Below, piece after piece: positions 1,326-40,085 of a stretch of DNA of 64,000 bases (position 1 is its first letter; every line of letters begins with the position of its first letter). The notes under the pieces are model-generated. The model did not search any database. It was not told where the DNA came from and saw only the letters and a program-made list of their open reading frames with translations. The translations under genes and the position numbers were made by a program. Source of the DNA: Bacteroidales bacterium. GTDB lineage: Bacteria; Bacteroidota; Bacteroidia; Bacteroidales; VadinHA17. Location: the NCBI GenBank assembly GCA_049512815.1, contig JBEKWS010000008.1:7013-71012 (forward strand), read 5' to 3'.

Positions 1326-2093
1326 TTAACCCCTTTCTGATATCTGAATAAGCTTTTCCCTGTCCAGTATTTTTATCTTTGACGAATCAGAATAAATAAC
1401 TCCTGAAACCTCAAGTTTCTTCAGTATTCTTACAACACATTCCTTGGCCATATTTGTCATCTCGCCAAGTTCTTGACGTGATAGGATCATTTCATATTCG
1501 TCTTTGTGGAACACCTGATCTGAAAAATACAATAATGCGTCTGCAAGTCTGCCGGACATTTTCTTTTGTGACAGGTTGACCATCCTGTTAAGTGACCCAA
1601 GCGATTTTGCACTGATATCTTCGAGGAGGCCCTCTGCAAATGGTCCGTTCACCCTTACCAGATGTTTGAAAATCTCAAAATTTATAAAACAGGCCTGAAC
1701 AGCAGTTATAGCAGCAACTGTATAGGTATGTCTGGAATTTACGTATGCACCGGGACCCATTATCAACCTTCCGGGTAAAGCAATACTCATTATAAAATTT
1801 TTCCCGTTTAATCCCTCAATATATGTTTTTGCCATTCCGGATGCCAGAAACAAAGCATTAGATGTGGGAGAGCCCTGTTTCATCATAATCTCACCAGGTT
1901 TAAATGTGGCTTCATACCTGTTGTCGTTTACCAGTCGAAGCTCCTCTTTTGTCAGATGCTGAAAGTTTTTCCATCGGCGGGTGCAGGTCTCACAACTACT
2001 TATTAAATTGACCACTGACATATTTCCGTTTTTAAAGGGGTTCAAAAATAGGTTATTAATAACATAAGAATCTACAAAACTAACAAATATCAC
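1326..2093 (-). CDS. Crp/Fnr family transcriptional regulator. The likely true start is M25 at 2021.
   Basis: A cNMP-binding-like beta-roll is followed by a C-terminal HTH (SRQELGEMTNMAKECVVRILKKLEVSGVI). An N-terminal CETC motif is present. Confidence 0.8.
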   Translation of the reverse strand: MIFVSFVDSYVINNLFLNPFKNGNMSVVNLISSCETCTRRWKNFQHLTKEELRLVNDNRYEATFKPGEIMMKQGSPTSNALFLASGMAKTYIEGLNGKNFIMSIALPGRLIMGPGAYVNSRHTYTVAAITAVQACFINFEIFKHLVRVNGPFAEGLLEDISAKSLGSLNRMVNLSQKKMSGRLADALLYFSDQVFHKDEYEMILSRQELGEMTNMAKECVVRILKKLEVSGVIYSDSSKIKILDREKLIQISERG

Positions 2094-2228: not shown

Positions 2229-3536
2229 ATGAAAAACCTTTTCAGATTATTTTCATTTTTATTTTCGGCTGGATTTCTGCTCACAGCTTGTGAAGGTCCT
2301 ATGGGCCCTGCCGGGACTGCCGGAACAGATGGGAAAGATGCGAATGCGACCTGTACCCAATGTCATAATTCAACCGGTGTTGATTCGGTAAAAACCCAAT
2401 TTGCATATTCAAAACATTCCTATGGCGATGCAAATTTCGAGGAAGTCGGTAGTACAGGTTGTTCCCCTTGCCACGAATCAGAGGCCTTTAAATATGTAGT
2501 TGAAAACAATGTATCAACGGTCTTCTCAATTGTACCTCCTGCAACTACTTATTCCAATCCTTATGCTTCATCTCCTGATAAATCCTACGGCCCTATGCAG
2601 TGCAATATGTGCCATAGCAAATTACATACTACATATACCTTTGCTGATTTCATGCCTCTGACAACTACTGCAGCCGTGCCAATGACCTTTTTCGGTGGTG
2701 CAAAAACCATTGACCTTCCACAGGATGATAGCAAAAGCAATTTATGCGCTAAATGCCATCAACCTCGTCCTTTTACAAATTCAAACACAAATAAGAATGT
2801 ATTGAATTACGCCTTATTAGTAAGCAATCCGACTGCTGTATTCTACGATGCAGCTCAATCCAATAGTCTGAATGTTCTTAAACCCAGTTTCAGAACAAGT
2901 ACACATAATGGTACTACCGCAGCAATATTTGCCGGTATTGGTGGTGTGGAATTCGGAACAGGTTACACCAATTCACAGCATACAACTGTTGCATCATGCC
3001 AGGATTGCCATATGGCACCAATGACAGGAAAAGCCGGGGGACACACATTTTCTGCCCAGGGAAACTTTAACGGATGTAATGTTGCAGGTTGCCATTCGGC
3101 CAATCCTATATCTTCAGCAACTACATCAAAATACTGGAAACAGACCAGAGACGGGGTTAAAGCACAACTCGACCAGTTAGCAGCAAAATTACAGATCGGG
3201 GGCATTGATATTCTAAATAGAAATAGTGATGCGACTTCAAACCTATGGGCCGGACTCACAACAAATAACTATGACGGAAATCTGAATATATATGACCCTG
3301 TCAATAATCCTACCGGCATTGTCTATAATACAACTATGTTTCAGAATACAAGCACTACAGGCTTTACTGCTGAGCAGATCGCAGCTAATAATTTATTACC
3401 AAAAATTACCTTGACGAATGCACAAATGGGAGCTGTTATCAACTTCCAGTTATGCCTCAGAGATTTTAGTTTAGGTATTCATAATGCTGCATATACAACA
3501 ACTTTGTTAGCTAACTCAATAGCAGTACTTCCATAA
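2229..3536 (+). CDS. Multihaem c-type cytochrome lipoprotein with a short collagen-like GXY tract
   Basis: Signal peptide plus lipobox (LLTAC). Five CxxCH sites (CTQCH, CSPCH, CNMCH, CAKCH, CQDCH) plus one CX4CH (CNVAGCH). A GPMGPAGTAGTDGKD tract follows the lipid cysteine. Confidence 0.8.
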   Translation: MKNLFRLFSFLFSAGFLLTACEGPMGPAGTAGTDGKDANATCTQCHNSTGVDSVKTQFAYSKHSYGDANFEEVGSTGCSPCHESEAFKYVVENNVSTVFSIVPPATTYSNPYASSPDKSYGPMQCNMCHSKLHTTYTFADFMPLTTTAAVPMTFFGGAKTIDLPQDDSKSNLCAKCHQPRPFTNSNTNKNVLNYALLVSNPTAVFYDAAQSNSLNVLKPSFRTSTHNGTTAAIFAGIGGVEFGTGYTNSQHTTVASCQDCHMAPMTGKAGGHTFSAQGNFNGCNVAGCHSANPISSATTSKYWKQTRDGVKAQLDQLAAKLQIGGIDILNRNSDATSNLWAGLTTNNYDGNLNIYDPVNNPTGIVYNTTMFQNTSTTGFTAEQIAANNLLPKITLTNAQMGAVINFQLCLRDFSLGIHNAAYTTTLLANSIAVLP

Positions 3537-3671: not shown

Positions 3672-4067
3672 TTACTTCTTCAATGTTCTCAAGTAGTTGA
3701 CAACATTCCAGATATCATTATCTGATAATTTGCCTTCATACTTTGGCATTTCGCTTCTTCCGGTTTTTGTTTTATAAAAAAGATCGCCATCAGCAAGATT
3801 CTGGAATTCAGCTTTAGAAAAATCACCCGGGAATGTTTTAAGAGCCCTGGCTTTTACGCCATCGCCAAGACCAGCTTTCCCATGGCAGGATGCGCAATTC
3901 TTTGTATAAAGATCCATCCCGGTTTTGGTACTTGCGGCACTCTGAGCAATAGGGTTCTTCATTGAACTGGAGTTAGCCGGTACAACCCATGGCTTAGGCT
4001 GTGCCATCAATGTTGCGCTTAACATCAAAACCGAAGCGCTGGCAAATAAAAGTTTCAAAGTTTTCAT
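3672..4067 (-). CDS. Monohaem class I cytochrome c, secreted (paralog A)
   Basis: Signal peptide, a single CASCH site and a distal MPKY methionine. About 71 percent identical to the 7411-7806 product by hand alignment. Confidence 0.85.
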   Translation of the reverse strand: MKTLKLLFASASVLMLSATLMAQPKPWVVPANSSSMKNPIAQSAASTKTGMDLYTKNCASCHGKAGLGDGVKARALKTFPGDFSKAEFQNLADGDLFYKTKTGRSEMPKYEGKLSDNDIWNVVNYLRTLKK

Positions 4068-4581
4068 AAATATTATAGTATTAATTAAGGTGATAAATAC
4101 AATTATCGTGCAAAAGTTAGTTTAAATTTCTGAGTTCATCCTTCGCTATTTTTCAGCAAGGATATTTTTCCTTATAAGGCTGATTAAAACAAAGATATTA
4201 TGATCCAAGACAACGGCAAACAAAATTTGCATTAATTATTTCCTCATTTTTAGCGCTATATCTGATAATAGGTAAAGAATAGTTACAATTCTAATGTAAA
4301 AAACCACGGATTCAATTTGTAAATTTTAAACGTCGAATTAATAAATAACTACCAAAAATATTTGGGAGAATAGAAAATTAAAGCTATTATTGCTTTTACA
4401 CTTGTTATTATTCTTTTCTTGGTTATTGCCAATAAATTAGTTCCGAAATCTTTTTTAGAACACAGGCATTTAAGGACAATTAGCAATAATTGAAAACGAA
4501 TCACAAAATCTTCAATTTGATTTAATAAAGAAGGTTCTTTTCTACAACGCTTAAATTTTTTATTTGAAAAGTTAATTTAAT

Positions 4582-5163
4582 ATGAAGTATAAATTTTACG
4601 AAAACATTAAATTACCCCTTATAATAATAACACTTTTTCTTGTTTTGTTGTTTGGCTGTAAAAATAATGAATCAGACAATAATGGAATAAATAAAATAAA
4701 TAATGAAAAAGAAGAAATTAAAAGTACTGAACAATACAATGAATATGCTGTAGAACCACCTCCCTTCAGCGATGGTATATTTCCCTGCACTGATTGTCAT
4801 AAAAATTTAACTCCGAATCCTGTAAGAAGGGTATTAGTAGATTGGCATAACGATATTTCTGCAATGTTTAATCATGATAGTGAAAATCGTTGGTGTCTTG
4901 ATTGCCATGATCTTAAAAACAGAGATTCTTTAAGGCTTGCAAGTGGAAAATTATTAGATTTTAAGGAATCATATAAACTTTGCGGTCAGTGTCATGGGGA
5001 AAAATACAGAGACTGGAAAGTTGGGGTGCATGGAAAGAGAACTGGTGAATGGAACGGGAAAAAAGAATATTTGCTTTGTGTTAGTTGTCATAATCCTCAC
5101 TCACCAAAATTTAAAGAACTAAAGCCCGAACCGCCGCCAGTTATGCAGGAAGATATTAAATAA
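4582..5163 (+). CDS. Tetrahaem cytochrome c (c3-like) lipoprotein
   Basis: Lipobox LFGC. Four CxxCH sites (CTDCH, CLDCH, CGQCH, CVSCH). First gene of a three-gene plus-strand operon. Confidence 0.85.
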   Translation: MKYKFYENIKLPLIIITLFLVLLFGCKNNESDNNGINKINNEKEEIKSTEQYNEYAVEPPPFSDGIFPCTDCHKNLTPNPVRRVLVDWHNDISAMFNHDSENRWCLDCHDLKNRDSLRLASGKLLDFKESYKLCGQCHGEKYRDWKVGVHGKRTGEWNGKKEYLLCVSCHNPHSPKFKELKPEPPPVMQEDIK

Positions 5164-5189
5164 CTAGAATTATTGAATATTCAGCAAAA

Positions 5190-6080
5190 ATGAAAAACAA
5201 GAATTCAAGAAGATCGTTCATAAAAAATATTTCATTAGCAACATTTTCGGCACTTGCACTTTCAGGTTGTAATTCGGTAGTATTTGATGAATTTCTTCAG
5301 CGAAATTTTAAAACATTATCAAAAAAGGAAAAGGATAAAATAATTAAAAATCTGGAAACTAAATACAAAGAAAAGTACGGTAAAGAATTTCATGTGTCTG
5401 ACAAACCTGCGATAGATGGAACCTTATTTGGATATGCCCTCGATTTATCCAGATGTGTTGGATGCAGGAGATGTGTTTATGCATGTGTTAAAGAAAACAA
5501 TCAGTCGCGTGAGCCTCAAATTCATTATATAGAGGTGCTTCAGATGGAAAAAGAGAAAGGGATAGATTTTGCTCATTCCACTGCTCAGTATAATCCGGAA
5601 AAAGTTCCGGAAAAAGGATATTTTTATGTGCCAGTACAATGCCAGCAGTGTCAAAATCCTCCATGTGTAAAAGTTTGCCCGGTGAAAGCCACATGGCAGG
5701 AACCTGATGGTATTACTGTGGTTGATTACAATTGGTGTATCGGATGCAGGTATTGTATGGCAGCCTGCCCCTATGGAGCAAGGCATTTCAATTGGGGCGA
5801 GCCAAATGTGCCTATTGAAGAATTAAATACTGAAGTGCATTATTTAGGTAACAGGCCAAGAATGAAGGGTGTAGTAGAAAAATGTACTTTTTGTGTTCAA
5901 AGAGCCAGAGAAGGTAAATACCCGGCATGTGTTGAAATATGCCCGGTAGGAGCAAGAAAATTCGGAAATCTTTTGGACCCCGAAAGCGAAATCAGATACA
6001 TATTAGAAAACAAACGAGTAATTGTACTGAAACAGGAATTGAACACACAACCTAAATTCTACTATTTCTTTGGTATCTAA
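5190..6080 (+). CDS. Tat-exported 4Fe-4S ferredoxin-type subunit (NrfC/HybA/PsrB-like)
   Basis: Twin-arginine motif SRRSFIK. Four Cys clusters (CVGCRRCVYAC, CQQCQNPPCVKVCP, CIGCRYCMAACP, CTFC...CVEICP). Confidence 0.85.
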   Translation: MKNKNSRRSFIKNISLATFSALALSGCNSVVFDEFLQRNFKTLSKKEKDKIIKNLETKYKEKYGKEFHVSDKPAIDGTLFGYALDLSRCVGCRRCVYACVKENNQSREPQIHYIEVLQMEKEKGIDFAHSTAQYNPEKVPEKGYFYVPVQCQQCQNPPCVKVCPVKATWQEPDGITVVDYNWCIGCRYCMAACPYGARHFNWGEPNVPIEELNTEVHYLGNRPRMKGVVEKCTFCVQRAREGKYPACVEICPVGARKFGNLLDPESEIRYILENKRVIVLKQELNTQPKFYYFFGI

Positions 6081-6138
6081 ATAAAAGTTAATATTAAAGA
6101 AGCATTTAAAGTAGTTAAAAAAATAAATAGAATTTAAT

Positions 6139-7392
6139 ATGAATTTTATTCGTTTTATAACAGGCAGTATAAAAATAATTTTCCGCGGGAGCAAAACATA
6201 TTATACATGGCTGATCTTTTTGTTATTATTAATACTTTGGGGAGGCTTTGGTTATTCGGGTCAGTTAGCTCACGGGTTAATTAAAACCCACATGCGGGAT
6301 TCTGTATCCTGGGCTTTTTATATTGGAAACTTTACCTTTCTTGTCGGAGTCGCTGCAGCGGCTGTTATGTTAGTCATTCCAGCTTATATTTATGATTGGA
6401 AACCAATTAAAGAAATTGTAATTTTTGGTGAATTGCTGGCTGTCTGTTCTGTTATTATGTGTCTTTCATTTATTATGGTAGATATTGGAAATCCACTCAG
6501 ATTCTGGCACATGCTACCTCTGATAGGCACATTGAACTTTCCATCTTCTATGCTCTCCTGGGATTTTTTCGTTCTTAACATCTATTTATTTCTTAATTTA
6601 TTTGTTGTAACCTATTTATTATATTGTATTTTTTATAAAAAAGAATATAATAAATCAATTGTTTTACCGCTTGTTTTAATCAGCATTCCAATGGCTGTTG
6701 CTATCCATACAACGACAGCATTTCTTTATAATGCCTTACCTGGACGTGCATTCTGGAATAGCGCTTTACTTGCTCCAAGATTTTTAGCATCAGCTTTTTG
6801 CTCAGGTCCGGCTATTCTTTTGATTCTGTTTCAAATACTTAGAAAAACTACTAAGTTCGAAATAAAAGATGAAGCTATTTGGAAAATTGCTGAACTTATG
6901 GTCTATGCCATGTTCATTTACCTGTTTTTTACTATTGCTGAACTTTTTAAAGAGTTCTATTCCGGAACTGAGAATATCTTGTATTGGAAATATTTACTTT
7001 TCGGGATAGGGGAGCACAAAGAAATCGTTCCTTACAGCTGGTCGTCAATTATTATGGGATGTATCGCTTTTATACTTTTCTTAATTCCCAAAACCCGAAA
7101 AAATTTTCTGACTCTTAACATTGGGGCAGTTCTTATATATGGAAGCGTTTATGTAGAAAAAGGAATTGCTCTGATTATTCCTGCATTTACCCCGGATGTT
7201 TTAGGACAGATATATGTATATACCCCATCTATGACTGAAATCAGAACTGCGGTGATGATATTTTCAATTGGATTTTTACTTTTTACCTTTTTATCAAAAA
7301 TTGCTATAGCTATTGTATTTGAAAATTACAATATTGAGAGTCTAAGACCAAAAAAAGAGGCTGCCCAAATTAGTACAGCCTCGAATCTTTAA
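6139..7392 (+). CDS. NrfD/PsrC family polytopic membrane quinone-interacting subunit
   Basis: A 417 aa, highly hydrophobic multi-TM protein directly after the NrfC-like gene. This is the typical NrfCD gene order. Confidence 0.75.
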   Translation: MNFIRFITGSIKIIFRGSKTYYTWLIFLLLLILWGGFGYSGQLAHGLIKTHMRDSVSWAFYIGNFTFLVGVAAAAVMLVIPAYIYDWKPIKEIVIFGELLAVCSVIMCLSFIMVDIGNPLRFWHMLPLIGTLNFPSSMLSWDFFVLNIYLFLNLFVVTYLLYCIFYKKEYNKSIVLPLVLISIPMAVAIHTTTAFLYNALPGRAFWNSALLAPRFLASAFCSGPAILLILFQILRKTTKFEIKDEAIWKIAELMVYAMFIYLFFTIAELFKEFYSGTENILYWKYLLFGIGEHKEIVPYSWSSIIMGCIAFILFLIPKTRKNFLTLNIGAVLIYGSVYVEKGIALIIPAFTPDVLGQIYVYTPSMTEIRTAVMIFSIGFLLFTFLSKIAIAIVFENYNIESLRPKKEAAQISTASNL

Positions 7393-7410: not shown

Positions 7411-7806
7411 TTACTTCTTCAAAGTTCTTACATAGTTAACAACATTCCAGATATCATCATCTGATAATTTTCCTTCATATTTTGGCATGTCACCTCTTCC
7501 TGTTTTGGTTTTGTAGAAATGTTCTCCATCTGTCTGATTCTGTGATTCTGCTTTTGAAAAGTTCGTTGGGACGGTTTTAAGTGATTTTGCTTTCGGTCCA
7601 TCACCAAGACCAGTTTTTCCATGACATGCAGCACAGGTTTTTGCATAGAGAGACTGTCCTGCTATCGTGCTGGCATCGCTCATGGCAATAGGATTCTTCA
7701 TTGTTTTGAAGTTAGCCGGTACAACCCATGGTTTTGGTTGTGCAACCAAAGAAATGCTCAGAAACATAACTGCTGAGCAGATAAAGATCAATTTAAGAGT
7801 TTTCAT
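7411..7806 (-). CDS. Monohaem class I cytochrome c, secreted (paralog B)
   Basis: Signal peptide and a CAACH site. Same length (131 aa) as the 3672-4067 product and collinear with it. Confidence 0.85.
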   Translation of the reverse strand: MKTLKLIFICSAVMFLSISLVAQPKPWVVPANFKTMKNPIAMSDASTIAGQSLYAKTCAACHGKTGLGDGPKAKSLKTVPTNFSKAESQNQTDGEHFYKTKTGRGDMPKYEGKLSDDDIWNVVNYVRTLKK

Positions 7807-7877
7807 AATCCTCGATTTTAATTTATGTATAAAGATAACAATAACCGTGCAAATAATAATTTCAAAATTATTTAAAA

Positions 7878-8495
7878 TTATTCGTCATCCGAAACATTGT
7901 AGCCCGTTATGATTCCCCTGAAAAGAGAAGTCGGCTTAGTTCCAAGTGTGCAGGTATAAACATGGATTATCATAAATATCGTAAGGAAGAAACCCATTGT
8001 GATATGCAGTATGTCGGTAAGAATAAGACCACTAATGCCAAAAAATGTTGTAATGGTTATTTCAGGTAGCAACAGACCGATTCCTGATATAATAAGTAAA
8101 GGAAAAGCCACATACATGGCGAGTACATAAGTTAACTTTTGAAGTGGATTAAATTTGCGTTCTTCAGTTACAGGAAACGGATGTTTTTCACCTTTGAACA
8201 TTCCACTTGAATAATATTTAAATTGCTTCCGCAGATTTAACAAAAAATCTTTTCTGCCAATTCTGTAATACCTTCCATTATTTGTCAGAAGGTTTCCTGT
8301 AACAAATAATATATAGTTTAAAACCAATACCATAGCAGCAAAATTATGCCATCTTACTGCTTTGGCAAACCCGACAACATAAGAGGCATTTTCTTTATCA
8401 GTATACTGCATACTTAAACCAGTAACAATAAGAATAAGAAACATTATTGCGTTTATAACATGCCAGATCCTGATCCATTTTGGGTAGAGATACAT
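7878..8495 (-). CDS. Membrane b-type cytochrome (cytochrome b561 / HydC-FdnI-like family)
   Basis: About 4-5 TM helices with conserved His in the helices (WHVINAIMF, RWHNFAAMV, DILHITMGFF). Lies 12 nt downstream of the heptahaem gene. Confidence 0.7.
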   Translation of the reverse strand: MYLYPKWIRIWHVINAIMFLILIVTGLSMQYTDKENASYVVGFAKAVRWHNFAAMVLVLNYILFVTGNLLTNNGRYYRIGRKDFLLNLRKQFKYYSSGMFKGEKHPFPVTEERKFNPLQKLTYVLAMYVAFPLLIISGIGLLLPEITITTFFGISGLILTDILHITMGFFLTIFMIIHVYTCTLGTKPTSLFRGIITGYNVSDDE

Positions 8496-8506
8496 CTTCG
8501 TTTCCT

Positions 8507-9508
8507 TTAATAATTATTGTCTTTCTTTCTTATCCGTAATATGATGTGAATGATTATGACACCGATTACAAGAACAAAAATAACCAAACTTATAAGGTTC
8601 AGATATTCATTTCTGTTTGCTCCAATAACATATGATGCATTTAAAATTATTCCGTTAAAGAATCCGTCGCGGCGTTGTTTTTTTGATTCAAATTTATAAA
8701 GTGAGGCCATAAGTATTGAGTTTTTCGAATGACATTCATTACAAAGTTTGATAGCTTCTTCTTTGGGTTTAATCAGATGCGATACAGGAACATTATTGTT
8801 GATTTGAGTGTGGCATTCGATGCATCGTACGTTTGCAAAATGTGAAGTCTGATTAGGCAGCCATTCATGCTTTTGAATAATATTTATCTCTTTTTTATCA
8901 CTCAGAAGCTGAAAACGGCTGAAGTCCGAGTGACAATTCAGACAGATAGCGTTGTCATAAGCAATAGTCTCCTTGAGATTATTATTGTTTCGGACCGAGA
9001 TCTTGTAAGTGTGAGGATTATGGCATTTCCAGCATGAGAATCCATCTCCCTCCATTTTAAAGTGAGTGCTCTTCTGATATTCAGCTTTTATCTCTTCAAA
9101 ATGATATTTCGCAAATTTCTCATCACCACTATGACAATCTATACAATTATACTTTTGCTCCATTCTCAGTTCTCCCGAATGAGGAAATTTTACATACTCT
9201 GCTGAATGACAGTCGGTACAACTGAAGCTCCTGTGATTTGATCTGTAAAATTCATTCTTATGTATAATCAATTCCGAACACATTTGGGCTTTGACCTGTC
9301 TTCCAAGAGTTGCATTAGAGTATTCATACTTCTCCTGTCCGTGACATTTAAAACAGCGGTTGTTATCAGCATCAAAAGGAGAGACAAAGGAAGTTGTGTC
9401 CAAAACTTTACCATTATCTGTTTTGAAACGGAAACTTCCGGCAGAAGGGAGAGAAATTAAATTGATAAAAGCATACAGGATAATTATCCGGAACATAAAT
9501 AATTTCAT
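8507..9508 (-). CDS. Heptahaem c-type cytochrome with a C-terminal membrane anchor
   Basis: Seven CxxCH sites (CFKCH, CTDCH, CIDCH, CWKCH, CLNCH, CIECH, CNECH). N-terminal signal and a C-terminal TM segment LISLVIFVLVIGVIIIHIIL. Confidence 0.85.
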   Translation of the reverse strand: MKLFMFRIIILYAFINLISLPSAGSFRFKTDNGKVLDTTSFVSPFDADNNRCFKCHGQEKYEYSNATLGRQVKAQMCSELIIHKNEFYRSNHRSFSCTDCHSAEYVKFPHSGELRMEQKYNCIDCHSGDEKFAKYHFEEIKAEYQKSTHFKMEGDGFSCWKCHNPHTYKISVRNNNNLKETIAYDNAICLNCHSDFSRFQLLSDKKEINIIQKHEWLPNQTSHFANVRCIECHTQINNNVPVSHLIKPKEEAIKLCNECHSKNSILMASLYKFESKKQRRDGFFNGIILNASYVIGANRNEYLNLISLVIFVLVIGVIIIHIILRIRKKDNNY

Positions 9509-9527
9509 TCCTGATTACTTCATTGAA

Positions 9528-10394
9528 TTAGAATCTGACATGAATATTAAACCCTATCAGCCATTGGCTTTTTTTGAAATCATTCGTGTTGAACACGAGA
9601 TTCCGCTGATTAATAATCTGATCATAGTTGGTTACAAATATCTGGAAAGAATGTGTTGCCGTACCAATTTCCCAACCGAGCGAGAGATTTGGTTTTGGCT
9701 GTACAGCAATACTTTGCTTTGTAAGTAGTTGATCATATTCAATTATCAGCGATTGGGAACCGAATAAATTTGCACGTGCTCCTGCTGAAAGTCCTATGTT
9801 AAGATTCTTATAACCTGCTGTAGAATCTATATTTTGAGGTACGGAATTGAAATATGCCAGCGAAGGAGCTATCTGAACCGAAAACATATTGTTTATTTTG
9901 CGGGCCACAATCAGTTGAGTGAAATAAGATAACCTGTGAATTTGCCTGAAGCTTTCGGCTGGTCCGAAATCTCCTGCCTGTTGTAAATTAACTACGATAT
10001 TGCCATAATATGAAAGTGAAACAGGCATTTTATTATCTTCTGTCTGCCGCAGGATAAGATACTTCCACTGAATATCCTGAAGCTGATAATTCTTTGTTGT
10101 CCCGGCGCCGATCATTAACCTGTCGGTGATGCCATAATTAAGACCTATCCGTGTATTTGCCGAACCATAAATGCCAAAAAGATCATGATAATTTTCAATC
10201 GGGCTGAATCTATGACTTATTTCCAGTTCCAGACCGCCTTTATATGGTGTTTCAACTGTATTAATATCAATAAGAGTGGTCGTTCCAAAAGTAAACCGAA
10301 CAGGTTTTGATGTTACCTGTTTCAGAGTATCTTCCTGCGCGAACAAAGGAGAAATGAATAACGATAAAGTTAAAAAGATAAAAAAGTTTTTCAT
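9528..10394 (-). CDS. Putative outer-membrane beta-barrel protein (resembles DUF5777-type barrels)
   Basis: Signal peptide ending LFAQ, an alternating amphipathic strand pattern and a C-terminal aromatic residue (HVRF). Confidence 0.55.
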   Translation of the reverse strand: MKNFFIFLTLSLFISPLFAQEDTLKQVTSKPVRFTFGTTTLIDINTVETPYKGGLELEISHRFSPIENYHDLFGIYGSANTRIGLNYGITDRLMIGAGTTKNYQLQDIQWKYLILRQTEDNKMPVSLSYYGNIVVNLQQAGDFGPAESFRQIHRLSYFTQLIVARKINNMFSVQIAPSLAYFNSVPQNIDSTAGYKNLNIGLSAGARANLFGSQSLIIEYDQLLTKQSIAVQPKPNLSLGWEIGTATHSFQIFVTNYDQIINQRNLVFNTNDFKKSQWLIGFNIHVRF

Positions 10395-10424
10395 GTTATT
10401 TAGTTTTAACAGGTTAAGATATTT

Positions 10425-10808
10425 CTAATTATTATGGGCTCCCTGGTTGATCCAGTAGAGAACTTCAAGTTTGTCTGCTGCGGTTGACCTTGGAATATGG
10501 GCAGAATTAGTGGTCATTTGATGATACAGTATGCTTGTCGCTCCGGGAGGAGTAATATAGCCCCCACTGCTAAGCGATGTATAAGATTTACCACTCCTGA
10601 GGTCAGGGAATTGAGTCTTTCCATTATGACAAGTGATACAAATGGAGTTGAATATTGGCTGAATATCTGTTTGAAAGTGCCAGGTTTGATTCGGGTCAAC
10701 AGAAGGTGGAGAATATGAATACTTTTCACACGAAGAAAATCCTTCTACTGCCGCAATCAGAACTAATGCAGTTAGTATCTGTCTGATCCTGTTTAATTTC
10801 TGATTCAT
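10425..10808 (-). CDS. Small lipoprotein with a PSCyt1-like monohaem cytochrome c domain
   Basis: Lipobox GFSSC. The motif IQPIFNSICITCHNG...PDLRSG...GGYITPG...LYWINQGA matches the planctomycete-type cytochrome C pattern as I remember it. Confidence 0.65.
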   Translation of the reverse strand: MNQKLNRIRQILTALVLIAAVEGFSSCEKYSYSPPSVDPNQTWHFQTDIQPIFNSICITCHNGKTQFPDLRSGKSYTSLSSGGYITPPGATSILYHQMTTNSAHIPRSTAADKLEVLYWINQGAHNN

Positions 10809-11043: not shown

Positions 11044-12822
11044 TCAGAACTTATAAGCATTATCTTCAATAAGTTTATCAGCGATACGGCGCCTTGCATC
11101 TTTAACATTTACACATTCTACCCGTGAAAGATTTTCAATTGCCTTAATAAGTATCGGGCAGTTTTCCGGTGTTGAGAATGAGCCGATTGCATCAAAAGCC
11201 GATTTTCTGATGATGCTGGCTGTGTCAGACACATTAACGTCAAGCATATCTTTATAAAGTGATACATTCCCTTTCAGTGTTGACATTTTTTCAACTCTTA
11301 GAGCAAGTGATTCAGAGACATATGTTTCCATAATCATTTCAGCTATATTGTTGAGAACCTCCTGTTCTTTTATCAGGTCCTTATCAAATCGTTTTGTTGC
11401 ACCGTGAATACAAATCAGGATAGCCTTTTTGAAGTTCTTGATATATCTTGTTTTTTCCTGAAAATAACTTTCACCTGCTTTTTTACTATCGGTAATAATA
11501 CTTATACCTGAGTAGAGTTTCTCGGCTTCTCCGAACAGGTCAAATTCACCTTTCATTGCACGTTTCAAAGCTGTATCAACAACAAGCAGGCGGTTTATTT
11601 CATTTGTACCTTCAAAAATTCTGTTGATCCTGGAATCACGATAACCTCTTTCCACTGCCATTTCAGCTGAGTATCCCATACCGCCGTGTATCTGAACTGC
11701 CTCATCAGAAACATAATCAAGCATCTCAGATCCCACCACTTTCAGAATTGCTGCCTCAACAGCATAGTGACTGATTGCTTCAATTGAAGCCCTGCCATAA
11801 TCACCGCAATCAACTGTCAGTCTCTTCATCAGAATATCGATATCAAAACTTACTCTGTAAACAGCTGATTCTGAGGCAAAAAGACGAATAACCTGTTCAG
11901 CCATTTTGTGCTTTAATGCTCCAAATGTTGAAATTAAAACTCCAAACTGTTTTCTCTCGTTGGCATATTTAACCGAATCATTAATCGCTTTTTTAGCAGC
12001 TCCAATGACATTAGCTCCAAGCTTAAGACGACCCATGTGAAGGATACTAAGAGCAATCCTGAACCCTTCTCCTCTTTTACCAAGCAGGTTTTCTACCGGC
12101 ACTTTAACATCATTAAAGTAGATCTGGGCCGTTGAAGATCCTTTAATTCCCATTTTGTGCTCATCGGGACCCACAACTACACCCGGGTACTTACTTTCTA
12201 CAATAAACGCACTAAGGACCCTGTCGGTATCAATTTTTGCAAATACCACCAGTGTATCTGCAAATCCGGCGTTTGTGATCCACATCTTCTGTCCGTTAAG
12301 GATATAGAATTTGCCGTCTTCACTTAATTTAGCATTAGTTTTCCCTGAGTTTGCATCGCTTCCGGCACCCGGTTCGGTAAGACAGTATGCTCCGATAAAT
12401 TCACCGGAAGCCAGTTTTGTAACGTAACGCTCCCTTTGATCCTTGTTTCCATAGTACATGATTGGTAAGGTACCAATACCACAATGTGCCATATATGCTA
12501 CGGAAAATGAATAGCCGGCACCTGTTGTTTCAGCCACAAGCATCTGTGTAATGAATGATTGTCCGAATCCGCCAAACTCTTCCGGAATTGATATTCCCAT
12601 TAATCCAAGTTCACCTGACTTTTTAAGTATACTTTTCATCAGTTCCCTGTCACTCTTCTCAACTTTTTCCAGATTGGGATATACTTCAGTTTCAAGAAAG
12701 TCGCGGCATGTCTGAGCAATCATTTTTTGTTCTTCATTGAATTCCTCCGGAATGAAAATATCTTTCGATTCAACTTCGTTTACAAGAAATTCACCGCTTT
12801 TCAAAAGTTTATTGTTTTCCAT
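11044..12822 (-). CDS. Long-form acyl-CoA dehydrogenase (592 aa)
   Basis: Hallmarks of the acyl-CoA dehydrogenase family (CLTEPGAGSD, QIHGGMGY, IFEGTNEI). Last gene of the etf operon. Confidence 0.9.
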   Translation of the reverse strand: MENNKLLKSGEFLVNEVESKDIFIPEEFNEEQKMIAQTCRDFLETEVYPNLEKVEKSDRELMKSILKKSGELGLMGISIPEEFGGFGQSFITQMLVAETTGAGYSFSVAYMAHCGIGTLPIMYYGNKDQRERYVTKLASGEFIGAYCLTEPGAGSDANSGKTNAKLSEDGKFYILNGQKMWITNAGFADTLVVFAKIDTDRVLSAFIVESKYPGVVVGPDEHKMGIKGSSTAQIYFNDVKVPVENLLGKRGEGFRIALSILHMGRLKLGANVIGAAKKAINDSVKYANERKQFGVLISTFGALKHKMAEQVIRLFASESAVYRVSFDIDILMKRLTVDCGDYGRASIEAISHYAVEAAILKVVGSEMLDYVSDEAVQIHGGMGYSAEMAVERGYRDSRINRIFEGTNEINRLLVVDTALKRAMKGEFDLFGEAEKLYSGISIITDSKKAGESYFQEKTRYIKNFKKAILICIHGATKRFDKDLIKEQEVLNNIAEMIMETYVSESLALRVEKMSTLKGNVSLYKDMLDVNVSDTASIIRKSAFDAIGSFSTPENCPILIKAIENLSRVECVNVKDARRRIADKLIEDNAYKF

Positions 12823-12849
12823 CGTTTTCAGATAATTATTTGGACTAAT

Positions 12850-13644
12850 CTATAATTCAAGTGATTGTACAATTAGTTCTGCAATGTCAAGATTTTTGAT
12901 CACTTCTTCTCTGTTTTTATACTTAAGACCATCAGTCAGCATTGTCATACAAAACGGACAGGCAGTTGCAATTACCGTAGCATCAGTCTTAAGGGCATCT
13001 TCAGTTCTCTCTATAAAAATTTCCTTGTTGCCTTTTTCTGCCTCCTTAAACATTTGAGCACCACCGCCTCCACAACATAATGCGAAACTTTTGTTTCTGT
13101 GCATCTCAACCAGATTACCAGTCAGCTTTTTAAGTATAATTCGTGGTTCGTCATATATATCATTTGCTCTTCCGAGATAACATGGATCGTGATAAGTAAT
13201 TGATATATTATTTAATGAAACAGAATCAATTTTTAAATTACCTTCTTCGATATTCCTGTTAAGAAACTGAAGGTAGTTAATAACTTCGTATTCACCGCCG
13301 AGATCAGGATATTCGTTCTTAAAGATGTTGAAACAATGCGGGCAAATGGTAATGATCCTTTTCACATCGTACATTCTGAATATCTCAATTAACCGCAGCG
13401 CCTGCATCTGAAAAAGCATTTCGTTGCCGGCACGTCTTGCAGGATCACCGTTGCAAGTCTCTTCTTTCCCAAGAACAGCATAACTGACATTCAGATACAT
13501 GAGGATTTTCGCAAATGCCCTGACAACCTTTTTGTACCTGTCATCAAAAGCTCCTGCACAACCTACCCAGAATAGGTATTCAGGCTTTTCTCCTCGTGCA
13601 AAAAGGTCTGCCATAACAGGGACTTCAATTTTCCGGGTTTCCAT
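12850..13644 (-). CDS. (Fe-S)-binding protein with CCG domains (HdrD/GlpC-like C-terminal half of an ETF-linked oxidoreductase)
   Basis: Two cysteine-rich CCG-type motifs, including ALCCGGGG. Confidence 0.8.
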   Translation of the reverse strand: METRKIEVPVMADLFARGEKPEYLFWVGCAGAFDDRYKKVVRAFAKILMYLNVSYAVLGKEETCNGDPARRAGNEMLFQMQALRLIEIFRMYDVKRIITICPHCFNIFKNEYPDLGGEYEVINYLQFLNRNIEEGNLKIDSVSLNNISITYHDPCYLGRANDIYDEPRIILKKLTGNLVEMHRNKSFALCCGGGGAQMFKEAEKGNKEIFIERTEDALKTDATVIATACPFCMTMLTDGLKYKNREEVIKNLDIAELIVQSLEL

Positions 13645-13712
13645 TTTTTATCTTTTCTTTAAACTTTTAATTACACAGAGAGCCACAGAAGGTTCACAGA
13701 GGTACACAGAGG

Positions 13713-15032
13713 TTAATGAATATTTAGTTCCAGATCTTTTGCCCAAAGCAGCCTGTCCTCAGCTGAGTATTGCCACGGTGCACCGTTATTTTCTATATTA
13801 TTGAAAACTGTTTTAAGTTCGCCCGGAGCAGATGCTTCCTCCATTACAAGATACCTGCGCATGTCTAAAATCAATATGGGATGGTTAATATTAATAGGGC
13901 ACTCTTTTGCACAGGCATTGCATGTTGTGCAAGCCCAGAGCTCTTCCTCAGAAATATAATCCCTTAACAGAGACCGGTTGTCATTGAAATCTCTTCCGTT
14001 TTTAACCATTGCAGGACCCTTCTCTTTCATTCTTGCTCTCAGGTCCATCATGACTTTCCGGGGGGACAATTTCTTACCGGTGATATTTGCCGGACAGACG
14101 GAAGTGCACCTGCCGCATTCCGTACATGCTAATGAATCAAAATAGTTTTTCCATGAAGTATCTTCTGCGTCTTTCACTCCAAACCGTTCAGGAGGAACAT
14201 CAGAAGCGGTTGCAGTGAAGACTGCATTCGCATCAAGCATGAGTTTTACTTCCCTTGTAATACTGTCCATATTCGGAAGCTTACCAAGCGGATCTAACCT
14301 TGATAGAAACACATTCGGTATTGACATGAACACGTGGAAATGCTTTGAATAGGGTAAAATGTTTGCAAATAGAAATATCAGAAGTATATGGGTCCACCAT
14401 GATGCTTCATACATAAGTCTGAAACTTTCTGCATGACCACCCGTAATGAAACCTGCAATCACTGAGCTGACCGGGAAAAGGCCGACTGAAACATCGCCTG
14501 TAAGTGACTTATATTCAATATACCCGGTATTCATTGTAAGCAGCGAAATCATTAATAGCAGGATTATTGATAATGCAATATTTGCATCAATATGAGAAAT
14601 CCTTTTCATTTCAATACCTTCAAATCTCTTTATATGGAAGAAAATTCTGCGGCTCATGAAAATAATTATTGAAATGGCAACCAGAAGCGCAAAGATATCG
14701 CCGGAAGCCATTATTATTTTATATACAGGTCCCAGGAACTGTAAAACCCTCTCTGTACCTGTAAGTCCGTCAATGACCATTCCTAGACTCCCGAAAATTA
14801 TTACACAAAATCCCCAGAAGACCAGCGCATGAAATAATCCGATTATGGGTCTCCGGAAAATTTTTGTCTGACCAAAGGCAACTGTAAGCATGACTTTTAT
14901 TCTCTTTCCGAAGTCCTTTACCTGGAATGCCGGTCTGGTAAATCTGAAAAACCTGATAATCCTGTTAATTGTGTAAGAAAATGTCCCTATTGTTATCAGG
15001 AGAATGGTTGTAAATACTATCTGTTTTGTCAT
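13713..15032 (-). CDS. Membrane-bound 4Fe-4S dicluster protein (N-terminal half of an ETF-linked Fe-S oxidoreductase)
   Basis: About 5-6 N-terminal TM helices, then CTECGRCTSVCP and CTTCNACAKECP. Confidence 0.8.
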   Translation of the reverse strand: MTKQIVFTTILLITIGTFSYTINRIIRFFRFTRPAFQVKDFGKRIKVMLTVAFGQTKIFRRPIIGLFHALVFWGFCVIIFGSLGMVIDGLTGTERVLQFLGPVYKIIMASGDIFALLVAISIIIFMSRRIFFHIKRFEGIEMKRISHIDANIALSIILLLMISLLTMNTGYIEYKSLTGDVSVGLFPVSSVIAGFITGGHAESFRLMYEASWWTHILLIFLFANILPYSKHFHVFMSIPNVFLSRLDPLGKLPNMDSITREVKLMLDANAVFTATASDVPPERFGVKDAEDTSWKNYFDSLACTECGRCTSVCPANITGKKLSPRKVMMDLRARMKEKGPAMVKNGRDFNDNRSLLRDYISEEELWACTTCNACAKECPININHPILILDMRRYLVMEEASAPGELKTVFNNIENNGAPWQYSAEDRLLWAKDLELNIH

Positions 15033-15039
15033 AGTAAAC

Positions 15040-16011
15040 CTATGTCTTTTTAACTTTTTTTATTGCTTCAACAAGTTTTGGAAGAACTTTCATAGCATCG
15101 CCAATTATACCATATTGGGCCACTTCAAAAATAGGAGCATTTTTATCGGTATTGATAGCAACAATATATTTCGATGAACTGATACCTGCAAGATGCTGTG
15201 TTGCACCTGAAATACCTGCAGCAATATAGAGGTTCGGGGCGATGATCTTACCCGTCTGTCCGGTATGTTCTTCGTGAGGTCTCCAACCTTCATCAGACAC
15301 CGGACGTGAACATGCTGTTGCAGCTCCGAGTAAAGCAGCCAGTTCTACAAGCGGAGACCAGTTGTCGGGCGACTTCATACCCCTTCCGCCAGATACAACA
15401 ATATCTGCATCTGTCAGAAGTATTTTACCTGATTGTTTCTGAACCTCCTTTACCACTGTTTTCAGCAATGACACATCCACGGGCGTATTCAGATTCTCAA
15501 TCGTAGCATTATTGGTTGTTTCAATCAGATCGAAAGAATTCTGAGCCAGTGTGAGTATTTTTACATCGGATTTGATAACCAAATGAGCAAATGCATTCCC
15601 GGAATAAATCCTTTTATAAACAGTGAAAGGATTCAGATTCAAAGGAAGTCTGCTTACACCTGAACCGACACCGGCTTTCAGACGCACAGATAACCTGGGA
15701 GCAATTGCTTTCCCTGTATTATTATTCGATATTAAAATAACTGTGGCGTTTTCTTTCCAGGAGAGCTCAGAGATGACACTTGTATAAGCCTGACTATCAA
15801 GGGTTTTAAACTGATCATTATTAACATTAATGATCTTGTTTGCACCATAGTTCCCAAGCTTATTTAATTCGCCCTCATGAACCTTCCCGATTGATATTGC
15901 GGTTACTGTAGTACTTAGCATTTTTGCAACACCAGATGCATAAGAGACCAGTTCAAAAGAAAGTTTTTTAAATTTCCCATCCCAATTCTCGGTATATACT
16001 AATACTGACAT
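15040..16011 (-). CDS. etfA: Electron transfer flavoprotein alpha subunit
   Basis: EtfA C-terminal FAD-binding signature (PNLYIAAGISGATQHLAG) and position after etfB. Confidence 0.9.
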   Translation of the reverse strand: MSVLVYTENWDGKFKKLSFELVSYASGVAKMLSTTVTAISIGKVHEGELNKLGNYGANKIINVNNDQFKTLDSQAYTSVISELSWKENATVILISNNNTGKAIAPRLSVRLKAGVGSGVSRLPLNLNPFTVYKRIYSGNAFAHLVIKSDVKILTLAQNSFDLIETTNNATIENLNTPVDVSLLKTVVKEVQKQSGKILLTDADIVVSGGRGMKSPDNWSPLVELAALLGAATACSRPVSDEGWRPHEEHTGQTGKIIAPNLYIAAGISGATQHLAGISSSKYIVAINTDKNAPIFEVAQYGIIGDAMKVLPKLVEAIKKVKKT

Positions 16012-16042
16012 ATCGTAGTGATTTATTGTTTTTATCTAATTA

Positions 16043-16792
16043 TCATATAACTTTTGCTTCATTCTGTAAAAGATCAATAAGCTGCGCCGGATTATCCGGA
16101 TCAATATATTTACAGGCCGCACGTGCTGTCGGTTTTTCAAATACAACAATCTGGGTCAATGAATCAATTGCGACTGGTTCAACCAGTTTTACAGGTTTTG
16201 ATCTCGCCATCATAATACCACGCATAGCTGCGATTCGGGGTTCTTTGGCAATACCCTTCTGGACAATAGCAACAAATGGAGCTGGTACTGTTACAACTTC
16301 TTTGCCTCCGTCTATTTCCCTGGTCATAACCGGCTGTCCGTTTTCAATTCTAATACCTGAAACAGCTGAAACTGAAGGAATCCCGAGAAATTCAGAGATC
16401 ATCCCTCCTACTAAGGACCCGTTAAAATCGCTTGATTCAATACCGCACATGATGACATCAAACTGTTCTTTTTTAACCACTTTAGCAATCTGGGCTGCAA
16501 CAAACCAGGCATCAGATGATTCTGCATTTACCCTGATTGCATCATCAGCGCCAATAGCCAGGGCTTTACGGATTGTTGGCTCCGATGTTGCGGGACCAAC
16601 ATGGATGACAGTAACAGATTTTATTCCACTTGCCGTATCCTCTTTAAGTTCAAGGGCACGCGTAAGAGACAATTCGTCCCATGGGTTAATAACCCACTGA
16701 ATACCTGTAGTGTCAATTGAGGCATTTCCTTCGGCAAATTTAATCTTTGTCGTTGTGTCGGGAACATTACTGATACAAACCAGAATTTTCAT
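16043..16792 (-). CDS. etfB: Electron transfer flavoprotein beta subunit
   Basis: EtfB-like N-terminus MKILVCISNVPDTTTKI. 249 aa, upstream of etfA. Confidence 0.9.
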   Translation of the reverse strand: MKILVCISNVPDTTTKIKFAEGNASIDTTGIQWVINPWDELSLTRALELKEDTASGIKSVTVIHVGPATSEPTIRKALAIGADDAIRVNAESSDAWFVAAQIAKVVKKEQFDVIMCGIESSDFNGSLVGGMISEFLGIPSVSAVSGIRIENGQPVMTREIDGGKEVVTVPAPFVAIVQKGIAKEPRIAAMRGIMMARSKPVKLVEPVAIDSLTQIVVFEKPTARAACKYIDPDNPAQLIDLLQNEAKVI

Positions 16793-34908: not shown

Positions 34909-34953
34909 TTTATAATTTTTATTTTCTTTCGGAAGAATTTTTCAAACTTTTCC

Positions 34954-35607
34954 AGCTCCGGAGGAGCGGTACATTAATAGTAAATTTAGTTATAAAAATA
35001 CCGAGCTCCGAAGGAGCGGGAAATTAATAGAAGAATTAATCATATCAATGTTGAGCTCCGGAGGAGCGATATCTTTAAATATCATCAAACAGATATTCGG
35101 TTTTATAGACTATATTATTATAATTAAGCAAATTAACATATTCCTCCTTGAAACTCTTCATCTTATGATGTTCTTCCTGGTTTTTAATATAATTGATTAT
35201 TGTATCCAATTCGGCAGGATTACACGTGAAGGCTCCGAATCCATGTTGCCATTCAAAACGTCCTTGAACCCATCTCTGTTCGTTGATAAAACGGGATGAG
35301 TTGGCTTTTATATCTCTGATCAGATCAGATAAAGCTATAGCGGGTTTAATGCTCAACAGAAGGTGAATATGATCGGGCATGCCATTGATTATCATTAGTT
35401 TCTGATCATTATTAGTAACGATACCTGTTATATATCTGTATAGATCATCTTTCCATCGCAGGGAGATGATGTTTTCTCTGCCTCTGACGGCAAAGACTGT
35501 ATGAATGAATAATTTTGTATATGTATCGGCCATGAGGTGTCGCTCCTCCGGAGCTCATAATATTTTATATATCAATAGTTCTATTAATATTTCGCTCCTC
35601 CGGAGCT
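34954..35607 (-). mobile_element. REPtron: a RAYT transposase gene flanked by inverted REP hairpin units
   Basis: Three forward units, (g)agctccg(g/a)aggagcg, at 34954-34968, 35003-35018 and 35053-35068. Two inverted units, cgctcctccggagct, at 35541-35556 and 35593-35607. Three of the five units carry the attaatag tail. Confidence 0.7.
35075..35533 (-). CDS. REP-associated tyrosine transposase (IS200/IS605 Y1 family, RAYT)
   Basis: MADTYTKLFIHTVFAVRGRE ... HIHLLLS (HUH motif) ... a C-terminal Tyr region. 152 aa. Confidence 0.8.
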   Translation of the reverse strand: MADTYTKLFIHTVFAVRGRENIISLRWKDDLYRYITGIVTNNDQKLMIINGMPDHIHLLLSIKPAIALSDLIRDIKANSSRFINEQRWVQGRFEWQHGFGAFTCNPAELDTIINYIKNQEEHHKMKSFKEEYVNLLNYNNIVYKTEYLFDDI

Positions 35608-36955: not shown

Positions 36956-36959
36956 TATA

Positions 36960-37685: not shown

Positions 37686-37687
37686 AT

Positions 37688-38560: not shown

Positions 38561-38561
38561 T

Positions 38562-39671: not shown

Positions 39672-39683
39672 AATTCCTGATTG

Positions 39684-39995: not shown

Positions 39996-40010
39996 TGATT
40001 AAATGTTTTA

Positions 40011-40045
40011 CAAATATACACCTAATTGGTTAAAATGCAAATATA
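40011..40045 (-). promoter_or_regulatory. Two exact TATATTTG (TAnnTTTG) -7 boxes upstream of the HigB-like gene
   Basis: Plus-strand caaatata at 40011-40018 and 40038-40045. Confidence 0.4.
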
Positions 40046-40048
40046 TAT

Positions 40049-40065: not shown

Positions 40066-40085
40066 TATGTGATATAATATTCGAA

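Follow-up and report, generated by a model that had tools for sequence, protein, structure and literature searches.

What a quinone-linked redox module does when no gene for a substrate-converting subunit stands beside it is the question raised by a three-gene locus at positions 4582-7392 of a 64,000-nucleotide (nt) stretch of a Bacteroidales bacterium genome (GenBank assembly GCA_049512815.1, contig JBEKWS010000008.1, positions 7,013 to 71,012, forward strand), the whole of which is referred to here as the window. The locus consists of three plus-strand genes coding a tetrahaem cytochrome c lipoprotein of 193 amino acids (aa) (T, 4582-5163), a 296-aa protein with four [4Fe-4S] clusters and a twin-arginine translocation (Tat) export signal (O, 5190-6080) and a 417-aa NrfD-family membrane protein with ten helices (P, 6139-7392). 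T and O are 26 nt apart, O and P are 58 nt apart, and a convergent gene begins 18 nt past the end of P. An initial annotation had placed these tightly spaced genes at exactly these coordinates, had described their products as a lipobox tetrahaem cytochrome, a Tat-signal four-cluster ferredoxin subunit and a polytopic NrfD-type membrane protein, all of which were borne out by the features detailed below, and had proposed that they work as a stand-alone quinol:cytochrome c (or reverse) oxidoreductase, likened in logic to the ActABC core or to Qrc-type modules. From the present analysis, T, O and P probably form one membrane complex that would act as a menaquinol dehydrogenase and feed periplasmic acceptors, and by their family relationships they appear to be part of a widespread, recently noticed family of DsrOP-related quinol:periplasm electron-transfer modules.

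Homologues of T-O-P at 85-100% identity number in the thousands in public data and 353 species-level genomes, matched with peptide patterns from a single protein, encode a relative; the three open reading frames (ORFs) are therefore real genes and not chance. The matches bear the names Bacteroidales, Marinilabiliales and Prolixibacteraceae, and the closest relatives among the nearest genome matches were metagenome-assembled genomes (MAGs) with the source labels fen, SPRUCE and Chersky, which were read as peat, fen and permafrost soils. Two sets of loci were read with 10 kb flanks. The Bacteroidia set (L001-L080) comprised the best 80 loci kept of the 353-genome matches, almost all labelled Bacteroidia, while the metagenome set (L085-L164) comprised 80 loci found with a profile of P relatives approximately 40% identical to the window P, in which T was recognised with a hidden Markov model built from the window's T family. 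Each of the 75 Bacteroidia loci with sufficient upstream sequence has T and O ahead of P on one strand, and the T-O-P order was found in 54 of the 54 metagenome loci with sufficient upstream sequence. Identity to the window in the Bacteroidia loci was 53-94% for T, 71-96% for O and 73-97% for P. The nearest non-Bacteroidia relatives examined were a Desulfobulbaceae MAG and 'bacterium BMS3Abin14', which keep the T-O-P order at 48-52% (T), 60-65% (O) and 55-56% (P) identity, and in the Desulfobulbaceae MAG (52%, 65% and 55%, respectively) all three proteins co-vary. Clear relatives were also found in MAGs labelled Desulfobulbaceae/Desulfobulbales, Nitrospirota, Thermodesulfovibrionales and Magnetococcales and on many unassigned metagenome contigs. 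T-O-P is a fixed unit with neighbours that vary by lineage. Candidates for an O-P-tetrahaem arrangement among the metagenome loci (for example L086) were rejected, as contig ends truncate them and the cytochromes that follow failed the T profile.

Residues 1-26 of T form its anchor, residues 27-55 a variable linker and residues 56-193 the domain with the four haems. The N-terminal hydrophobic segment ends with the lipobox LLFGC, of which Cys26 was invariant in 30 homologues. Four CxxCH motifs (residues 69, 105, 134 and 166) and exactly four extra histidines (89, 98, 150 and 173) were 100% conserved in 62 homologues of 25-66% identity, among which a conserved methionine or additional cysteine was absent, and all four haems should therefore be bis-His ligated. 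T matched the Pfam families Cytochrome_C7 and Paired_CXXCH_1, and a sequence search of the PDB returned trivial haem-motif matches and no relative.

O begins with the twin-arginine motif RRSFIK followed by LALSGC; it is Tat-exported and probably lipidated. Its sixteen cysteines are arranged as four ferredoxin-type cluster motifs, and it matched Pfam Fer4_11 (1.4e-19). The best-scoring NCBIfam family was DsrO (NF045797) with 193 bits against a cut-off of 200, compared with 115 bits on the NrfC profile (cut-off 378), and the sequence relatives in the PDB were NrfC/PsrB, ArrB and the iron-sulfur (FeS) domain of ActB. A lipobox after the Tat motif was present in 75 of 79 Bacteroidia O homologues versus 10 of 77 others; T, the other peripheral subunit, likewise has a lipobox in Bacteroidia.

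P matched Pfam NrfD (6e-32), has ten hydrophobic segments and is presumed to be the menaquinol site, free of cofactors. It scored 401.9 bits on the NCBIfam DsrP family (NF045798), above the cut-off of 350, and 25 bits on NrfD (cut-off 348), and the NCBIfam values of a Maribellus orthologue were the same as those of the window protein. A search of 1.84 billion representative proteins returned just 255 P relatives at E < 1e-30. The homologue P0258, 42% identical to P, belongs to a 90%-identity cluster that includes Archaeoglobales proteins named 'menaquinol oxidoreductase', which we take to be archaeal DsrP, and the Prokaryotic Genome Annotation Pipeline (PGAP) names another homologue, P0110, 'DsrMKJOP subunit DsrP'. 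In a neighbour-joining tree, used for rough grouping and approximate because it carries no support values, P fell beside DsrP. Lys341 of P (motif YVEK) aligned by phmmer with Arg395 of Rhodothermus marinus ActC; of 57 aligned sequences, 46 had lysine at this position, and two outgroup NrfD proteins from the 'b' modules described below had arginine. P keeps a membrane-embedded pair, E340-K341, where other NrfD proteins have a conserved arginine (PMC8076601), and the Lys-for-Arg replacement is a peculiarity of DsrP1 according to Calisto and Pereira (PMC8076601). An AlphaFold2 model of P (predicted local distance difference test score, pLDDT, 74; predicted TM-score, pTM, 0.78) was nearest in a Foldseek search of the PDB to ActC from four structures of alternative complex III (ACIII), with TM-scores of 0.73-0.76 and E of 1e-8 to 2e-10, at a sequence similarity of only approximately 19-20%; ActF was the next-best fold. 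ActC is the quinol-oxidising ACIII subunit, and the predicted fold thus supports quinol oxidation by P.

The window was scanned against family libraries with all ORFs of at least 120 aa within approximately 15 kb of the trio and most larger ORFs beyond. No molybdopterin, sirohaem, dsr or clear NrfA gene was found among the ORFs scanned, in keeping with the earlier statement that no catalytic gene lies nearby; this statement needs a caveat that went unmentioned at the time, as the six-haem lipoprotein encoded at 2229-3536 gives a weak match to the NrfA family. A further qualification is that in other lineages the same module is strung with catalytic enzymes, namely NapAB and octahaem cytochromes. 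A string of a Tat-exported molybdoenzyme, a NapB-like tetrahaem, T, O and P was present in 12 of the 27 metagenome loci with at least 4.8 kb of upstream sequence (L108, L110, L111, L115, L118, L128, L139, L141, L142, L148, L154, L160), and the molybdoenzyme upstream of these distant trios passes the NCBIfam NapA equivalog (957 bits, cut-off 904). The quinol dehydrogenase for NapA is normally NapC or NapGH, the place of which is apparently taken by T-O-P in the nap strings; we know of no published description of an arrangement of napA, a NapB-like gene and T-O-P. An HAO-like octahaem cytochrome (PF13447) adjoins the trio in nine of the 51 metagenome loci with sufficient downstream sequence, and two di-haem cytochrome c peroxidase-family genes follow P in L093. 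Since periplasmic nitrate reductase and peroxidases require a quinol-oxidising donor, these neighbours point to a quinol-oxidising role, and the quinol dehydrogenase place filled by T-O-P in the nap strings is the strongest argument available for electron flow from menaquinol to the periplasm. T-O-P is read as a general menaquinol dehydrogenase because the same trio is strung with NapA and a NapB-like protein, with HAO-like octahaems and with di-haem peroxidases. The fixed trio, its changing neighbours and the ActC-like predicted fold of P all lend support to the stand-alone oxidoreductase put forward in the initial annotation.

In the proposed mechanism, menaquinol would be oxidised by the ten-helix, cofactor-less P near the periplasmic face, and electrons would pass through the four [4Fe-4S] clusters of O and then the four bis-His haems of T, which would be tethered by its lipid anchor and a flexible linker of approximately 30 residues, before leaving T for periplasmic acceptors. 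Having no substrate-converting subunit, T-O-P would link quinone pool and periplasm as a general-purpose module; any proton translocation by the complex would be a further prediction. The immediate acceptors here would be two flanking monohaem cytochromes c, feeding whichever terminal oxidase or reductase is expressed, with the neighbouring multihaem proteins as further candidates. The first flanking gene (3672-4067, minus strand) encodes a class I cytochrome of 131 aa with a signal peptide, a CASCH motif and matches to Pfam Cytochrome_CBB3 and Cytochrom_C, and keeps its position in close relatives. The second (7411-7806, minus strand), convergent with P, encodes a 131-aa paralogue 71% identical to the first. 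Both are likely candidates for the electron acceptors of T-O-P, as had been suggested before. Of the 80 Bacteroidia loci, 28 carry a homologue in the interval -6/+5 kb around P, including three MAGs labelled Flavobacteriaceae (L066, L069, L071) in which a monohaem cytochrome c gene is directly 3' of P on the same strand, and this recurrence beside the module in several Bacteroidia lineages supports such a role.

An oxidoreductase of this kind is not a new idea for the family, as the same proposal was published for related loci of cable bacteria (PMC11976967, PMC13047784). Digel et al. (EMBO Rep 2025, PMC11976967) described a cable-bacterial tetrahaem cytochrome without a structurally characterised homologue, which adjoins transmembrane, FeS and small proteins, and named the set a candidate alternative complex III ('pACIII'). 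A 'dsrOhPh-tetrahaem' locus was described in 2026 (PMC13047784) from cable bacteria, some Desulfobulbales and 16 Beta-/Gammaproteobacteria, five of these 16 genomes being without sulfur metabolism; its four haems are all His-His, DsrPh groups next to canonical DsrP without falling inside it, and the authors speculated that quinol passes its electrons on to periplasmic cytochromes. Both descriptions are genome-based and neither mentions Bacteroidota. For the Bacteroidia T-O-P branch no description was found in the literature searched, where the most that was seen is a hint in a paper on a Prolixibacteraceae MAG (PMC10504345), with 'NrfD, 4Fe-4S, MHC' undiscussed in a figure legend. T-O-P is likened to the cable-bacterial locus by the published descriptions and Table S3 (PMC13047784), not by sequences: both have a DsrO-like Tat FeS protein, a DsrP-like ten-helix NrfD protein and an all-His-His tetrahaem, both are unlinked to dsrMK and occur in genomes without a Dsr pathway, and in both the DsrO and DsrP homologues lie near but outside canonical DsrOP, with the tree position of T-O-P approximate as noted above. 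The Bacteroidia modules are set apart by the lipoboxes on T and O. The small TMH1 gene of the DsrOhPh locus, stated to be specific to cable bacteria, is absent from the T-O-P locus of the window, and the genes of that locus seem to be arranged as O-P-tetrahaem, to judge by how the accessions are listed in Table S3 (PMC13047784), versus T-O-P here.

By descent, T-O-P appears to be the sister of the DsrOP part of DsrMKJOP: the nearest profiles of both P and O are from this complex, and P shares with DsrP1 the lysine in place of arginine as well as the ten helices. It differs from DsrMKJOP in having no DsrM/DsrK partner and no dsr genes found nearby, and in that the operon partners of its relatives in other lineages are Nap and octahaem cytochromes. 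A DsrK-type gene with a CCG domain was found within -6/+5 kb of P in none of the 160 loci of the two sets, none was called in four further loci that were read directly (L081-L084), and dsrMK was absent from the loci of the Desulfobulbaceae MAG and BMS3Abin14. One DsrJ haem has a cysteine axial ligand. DsrJ carries three haems (PMC8076601, Table 1) versus the four bis-His haems of T with no conserved cysteine or methionine. P thus lies beside DsrP, yet DsrK-type neighbours are missing and T is not DsrJ-like, which leaves the stand-alone proposal unrefuted by family placement.

T-O-P shares with ACIII a multihaem cytochrome c, a periplasmic FeS subunit and a cofactor-less quinol site of the NrfD type, ActC being the best structural match to the predicted fold of P and the FeS domain of ActB a match to O. 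ActB is a protein of approximately 1000 aa with a molybdopterin-like domain, whereas O corresponds to the FeS domain alone, and ACIII has two NrfD subunits (ActC, ActF) and a pentahaem ActA versus the single NrfD subunit and four haems here; T-O-P also has no ActD, ActE (monohaem) or ActF. Three-gene stand-alone modules for electron transfer from quinol to the periplasm, each a quinol dehydrogenase of a cytochrome with NrfC-type and NrfD-type proteins, are known in NrfBCD (E. coli), NetBCD (Aeromonas) and Cbc4/CbcSTU (Geobacter). These belong to other NrfD and NrfC clades than T-O-P, and T scored 22-27 bits on the NrfB profile (cut-off 167-184) and gave no match to the NetB profile. In function, T-O-P would resemble NrfBCD, NetBCD, NapC/CymA or the ActABC core.

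Cbc4 of Geobacter requires separate comment, as its cytochrome CbcS (160 aa) is helix-anchored with a NapC/NirT-like haem core, has a linker of approximately 30 residues and four bis-His haems and can reduce PpcA (bioRxiv 10.1101/2025.04.14.648717). Peptides derived from CbcS primers (DFGVHE, RTKAYC), together with its size, fit the cytochromes of a second type of module, termed 'b' (SDFGVEEGG and GKQYCQECH in L081), and not T. Judging from size and these primer peptides, Cbc4 probably corresponds to the 'b' module, the tetrahaem of which is anchored and 152-170 aa long, and not to T-O-P. Modules of this type, which resemble Cbc4, adjoin T-O-P in Maribellus, the Desulfobulbaceae MAG and BMS3Abin14 (L034, 4262-8379; L083, 4384-6156 and 10058-12621; L081, 1289-3812). 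In the Maribellus locus L034 a 'b' module (152-aa helix-anchored tetrahaem, TtrB/NrfC-like FeS protein and an NrfD protein of a different clade) is followed by a 550-aa DUF2339-like membrane protein, T-O-P and methylmalonyl-CoA mutase, and Draconibacterium (L041) likewise has the 550-aa protein and the mutase. A DUF2339-like polytopic protein of 550-590 aa accompanies the 'b' module in both L034 and L083. Of the 80 Bacteroidia loci, 42 had a homologue of the 550-aa protein close to P and 25-37 an FeS or NrfD protein related to those of the 'b' module; the window has no homologue of the Prolixibacteraceae 550-aa protein or of the second module.

Several points weigh against menaquinol oxidation by a T-O-P complex. 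The whole family is known from sequence alone, only synteny suggests that T assembles with O and P, and an AlphaFold2 model of T built from 30 homologues was unusable (pLDDT 41). The monohaem cytochrome c neighbours are conserved in just about one-third of Bacteroidia loci, and the Prolixibacteraceae neighbours, that is the second module, the 550-aa membrane protein and methylmalonyl-CoA mutase, are little informative on the acceptor. The HAO-like octahaem neighbours could be oxidative enzymes. Bis-His tetrahaems usually have low potentials. CbcS, from a different family and the sole measured analogue, has an apparent midpoint of -139 mV (bioRxiv 10.1101/2025.04.14.648717). A potential as low as that of CbcS is near or below that of menaquinone, so the reaction could be reversible. 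The module is also present in sulfur and iron oxidisers (Table S3, PMC13047784), in which input into the quinone pool is conceivable.

Some of these points would fit a reverse flow, in which T-O-P works as a Qrc-type cytochrome c:menaquinone reductase, possibly electrogenic, fed by periplasmic oxidation of H2, formate, reduced sulfur, Fe(II) or hydroxylamine-like compounds. The initial annotation had left the direction open, and O reaches 160 bits on the QrcC profile (cut-off 400) in a module that shares with Qrc a ten-helix NrfD subunit and a periplasmic multihaem cytochrome. The low potentials suggested by four bis-His haems, the possibly oxidative octahaems of the nine loci and the related loci in sulfur and iron oxidisers (PMC13047784, Table S3) are further points in its favour. 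No QrcB-like gene is present here, however, P scored only 40 bits on QrcD (cut-off 570) and has its nearest predicted fold in a quinol oxidiser, and Qrc runs in the opposite direction to that proposed for T-O-P. The scanned window ORFs and the scanned neighbours of the Bacteroidia loci included no gene for a periplasmic hydrogenase, a formate dehydrogenase or sulfur oxidation. Cultured hosts such as Draconibacterium and Maribellus are, as far as is known, organotrophs, which also counts against a quinone-reducing module, and the strings of NapA, NapB and T-O-P and the peroxidase-family neighbours require quinol oxidation. Reverse flow is therefore considered unlikely.

Menaquinol oxidation by T-O-P has a special case in which the trio would be the dedicated inner-membrane quinol dehydrogenase of an extracellular or outer-membrane route made up of two neighbouring groups of genes. 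The first is the six-haem lipoprotein gene (2229-3536, plus strand) located 1 kb upstream of the trio, coding a protein with five CxxCH motifs and one CxxxxCH motif (CNVAGCH) and a collagen-like glycine-rich stretch behind the lipobox (GPMGPAGTAGTDGKD). This protein gave the weak match to Pfam Cytochrom_C552 mentioned above (28 bits, cut-off 24.1) and no PDB relative by sequence search, and in several close relatives the match at its position is a multihaem protein just 25-30% identical; it is a possible periplasmic or surface partner or reductase. The second is a minus-strand cluster at 7878-10808 that encodes a PhsC-like cytochrome b (7878-8495), a seven-haem cytochrome with a C-terminal anchor (8507-9508) whose PDB sequence matches were weak (best E 5e-5), a DUF5777 beta-barrel protein (9528-10394) and a small CxxCH protein of 127 aa (10425-10808), and which may form a route of the porin-cytochrome kind. 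In the window and in its closest relatives both groups lie together with T-O-P and a Crp/Fnr-family regulator, and in the window they make up, with the two monohaem cytochromes c, a cytochrome-rich island; the peat and permafrost source labels make humics and Fe(III) plausible acceptors, and a 706-aa MtrC-like cytochrome follows the trio in the Desulfobulbaceae MAG, where the trio also adjoins a Rieske/cytochrome b pair. The linkage is nevertheless restricted to close relatives, as are the window's flanking genes in general, and the genes are absent near the trio in Prolixibacteraceae and most other lineages. The 7878-10808 cluster has its own quinone-interacting cytochrome b and, in many relatives, its own FeS-NrfD pair, and DUF5777 is a family without assigned function, so that a route dedicated to extracellular acceptors is judged improbable. 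This extra pair (a 320-aa FeS protein and an NrfD protein approximately 24% identical to P) is divergent and separates the second cytochrome c gene from the cytochrome b gene in many close relatives (L002, L003, L007 and L009, at approximately 11.7-14.9 kb) and is absent from the window (7806-7878) and from L006, L010 and L011; presence and absence among close relatives indicate that an entire quinone module was gained or lost inside a single lineage.

That the trio is the DsrJOP half of a true DsrMKJOP, or of another sulfur-metabolism complex with partners encoded elsewhere in the genome, is very improbable: P does exceed the DsrP cut-off (402 versus 350) with O nearly at that of DsrO (193 versus 200), P0110 and P0258 point the same way by name and by cluster, but DsrK-type neighbours are missing within -6/+5 kb of P in the 160 loci scanned and none was called in L081-L084, T has four bis-His haems versus three haems in DsrJ (PMC8076601, Table 1), the module adjoins nap and octahaem genes in distant relatives, related loci occur in genomes without a Dsr pathway (PMC13047784) and no dsr gene was among the scanned window ORFs.

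A menaquinol-oxidising T-O-P would need a supply of electrons to the quinone pool, and a minus-strand cluster at 11044-16792, located 4-9 kb from the trio and syntenic in close relatives (for example L010), may provide one. It encodes acyl-CoA dehydrogenase, a CCG protein, a membrane FeS protein and the electron-transfer flavoprotein (ETF) subunits EtfA and EtfB. The CCG protein (12850-13644, 264 aa) has two CCG domains and is the sole CCG protein in the window, and the membrane protein (439 aa) has approximately five N-terminal helices and a domain with two [4Fe-4S] clusters. The cluster looks like a split membrane-bound HdrD/DsrK-like ETF:menaquinone oxidoreductase and presumably resembles those of syntrophic fatty-acid oxidisers. 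Its electrons would enter the quinone pool from which T-O-P is proposed to draw, and the proximity of the cluster supports that proposal.

The T-O-P operon and the divergent cytochrome c gene have in common an AT-rich intergenic region of 515 nt (4068-4581). An alignment of 15 upstream regions identified a non-coding block at approximately 4345-4470 conserved in close relatives, which is a candidate promoter, leader or operator. Within it is a perfect 6-1-6 palindrome, TTATTGCCAATAA, at 4423-4435, with the variant TTGTTCCCAATAA in relatives; TTATTGCCAATAA has a single perfect match in the window and does not recur in the cytochrome island. A candidate regulator of the island is the Crp/Fnr-family protein encoded at its edge (1326-2093, minus strand; Pfam cNMP_binding and HTH_Crp_2), which is syntenic in close relatives, and the palindrome may be the operator of this regulator or a leader element. 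Searches for Fnr (TTGAT-N4-ATCAA) and Crp consensus sites gave nothing consistent in 22 upstream regions, and a scan for sigma-70 promoters and terminators gave counts not above those of shuffled sequence; the sigma-70-type promoter is not the type that Bacteroidota chiefly use. A small hydrophobic ORF resembling TMH1 in the conserved block was rejected, as it lacks a canonical start codon and is interrupted by an in-frame stop in relatives, and no conserved small ORF was found in 4068-4581 in the upstream alignment.

The remaining ORFs scanned in the window were housekeeping and type I restriction-modification genes, with no further respiratory genes among them. The restriction-modification genes (HsdM, HsdS, HsdR) are located at 33424-42863 on the minus strand, with a helix-turn-helix/IrrE-like peptidase pair between S and R. 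A 171-aa ORF at 48236-48751 (minus strand) is probably a gene fragment because it matched only the middle of the dipeptidyl peptidase IV N-terminal domain. The region 52000-58000 has a G+C content of 0.30-0.32, below the rest of the window, and several ORFs without a family match. No tRNA and no Rfam family were found in the 64 kb.

T-O-P is very common and strongly conserved across Bacteroidia, where it has so far been seen only as sequence. Pipelines label P as 'DsrP', 'polysulfide reductase NrfD' or 'HybB-like', names that, for Bacteroidales MAGs recovered from peat, permafrost and sediments, give a wrong hint of a metabolism based on sulfate, sulfur or hydrogen. By tying the trio to NapAB, HAO-like octahaems and peroxidase-family genes, the neighbourhood survey provides a functional argument that is testable, and cultured Prolixibacteraceae that carry the module are available in Draconibacterium, Maribellus and Mangrovibacterium. 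To our knowledge, no comparative argument for the direction of electron flow in the T-O-P family has been made before, and this direction bears on how electrons pass from quinol to the periplasm in cable bacteria, which lack a complete complex III. A bolder extension, possible though doubtful, is that T-O-P would be a third widespread type of quinol:cytochrome c oxidoreductase beside bc1/b6f and ACIII. In many Bacteroidia and in cable bacteria, electrons from menaquinol would then reach the periplasmic cytochromes, among them those feeding high-affinity oxidases, chiefly or solely through this complex, with energy conserved via the Glu-Lys pair of P.

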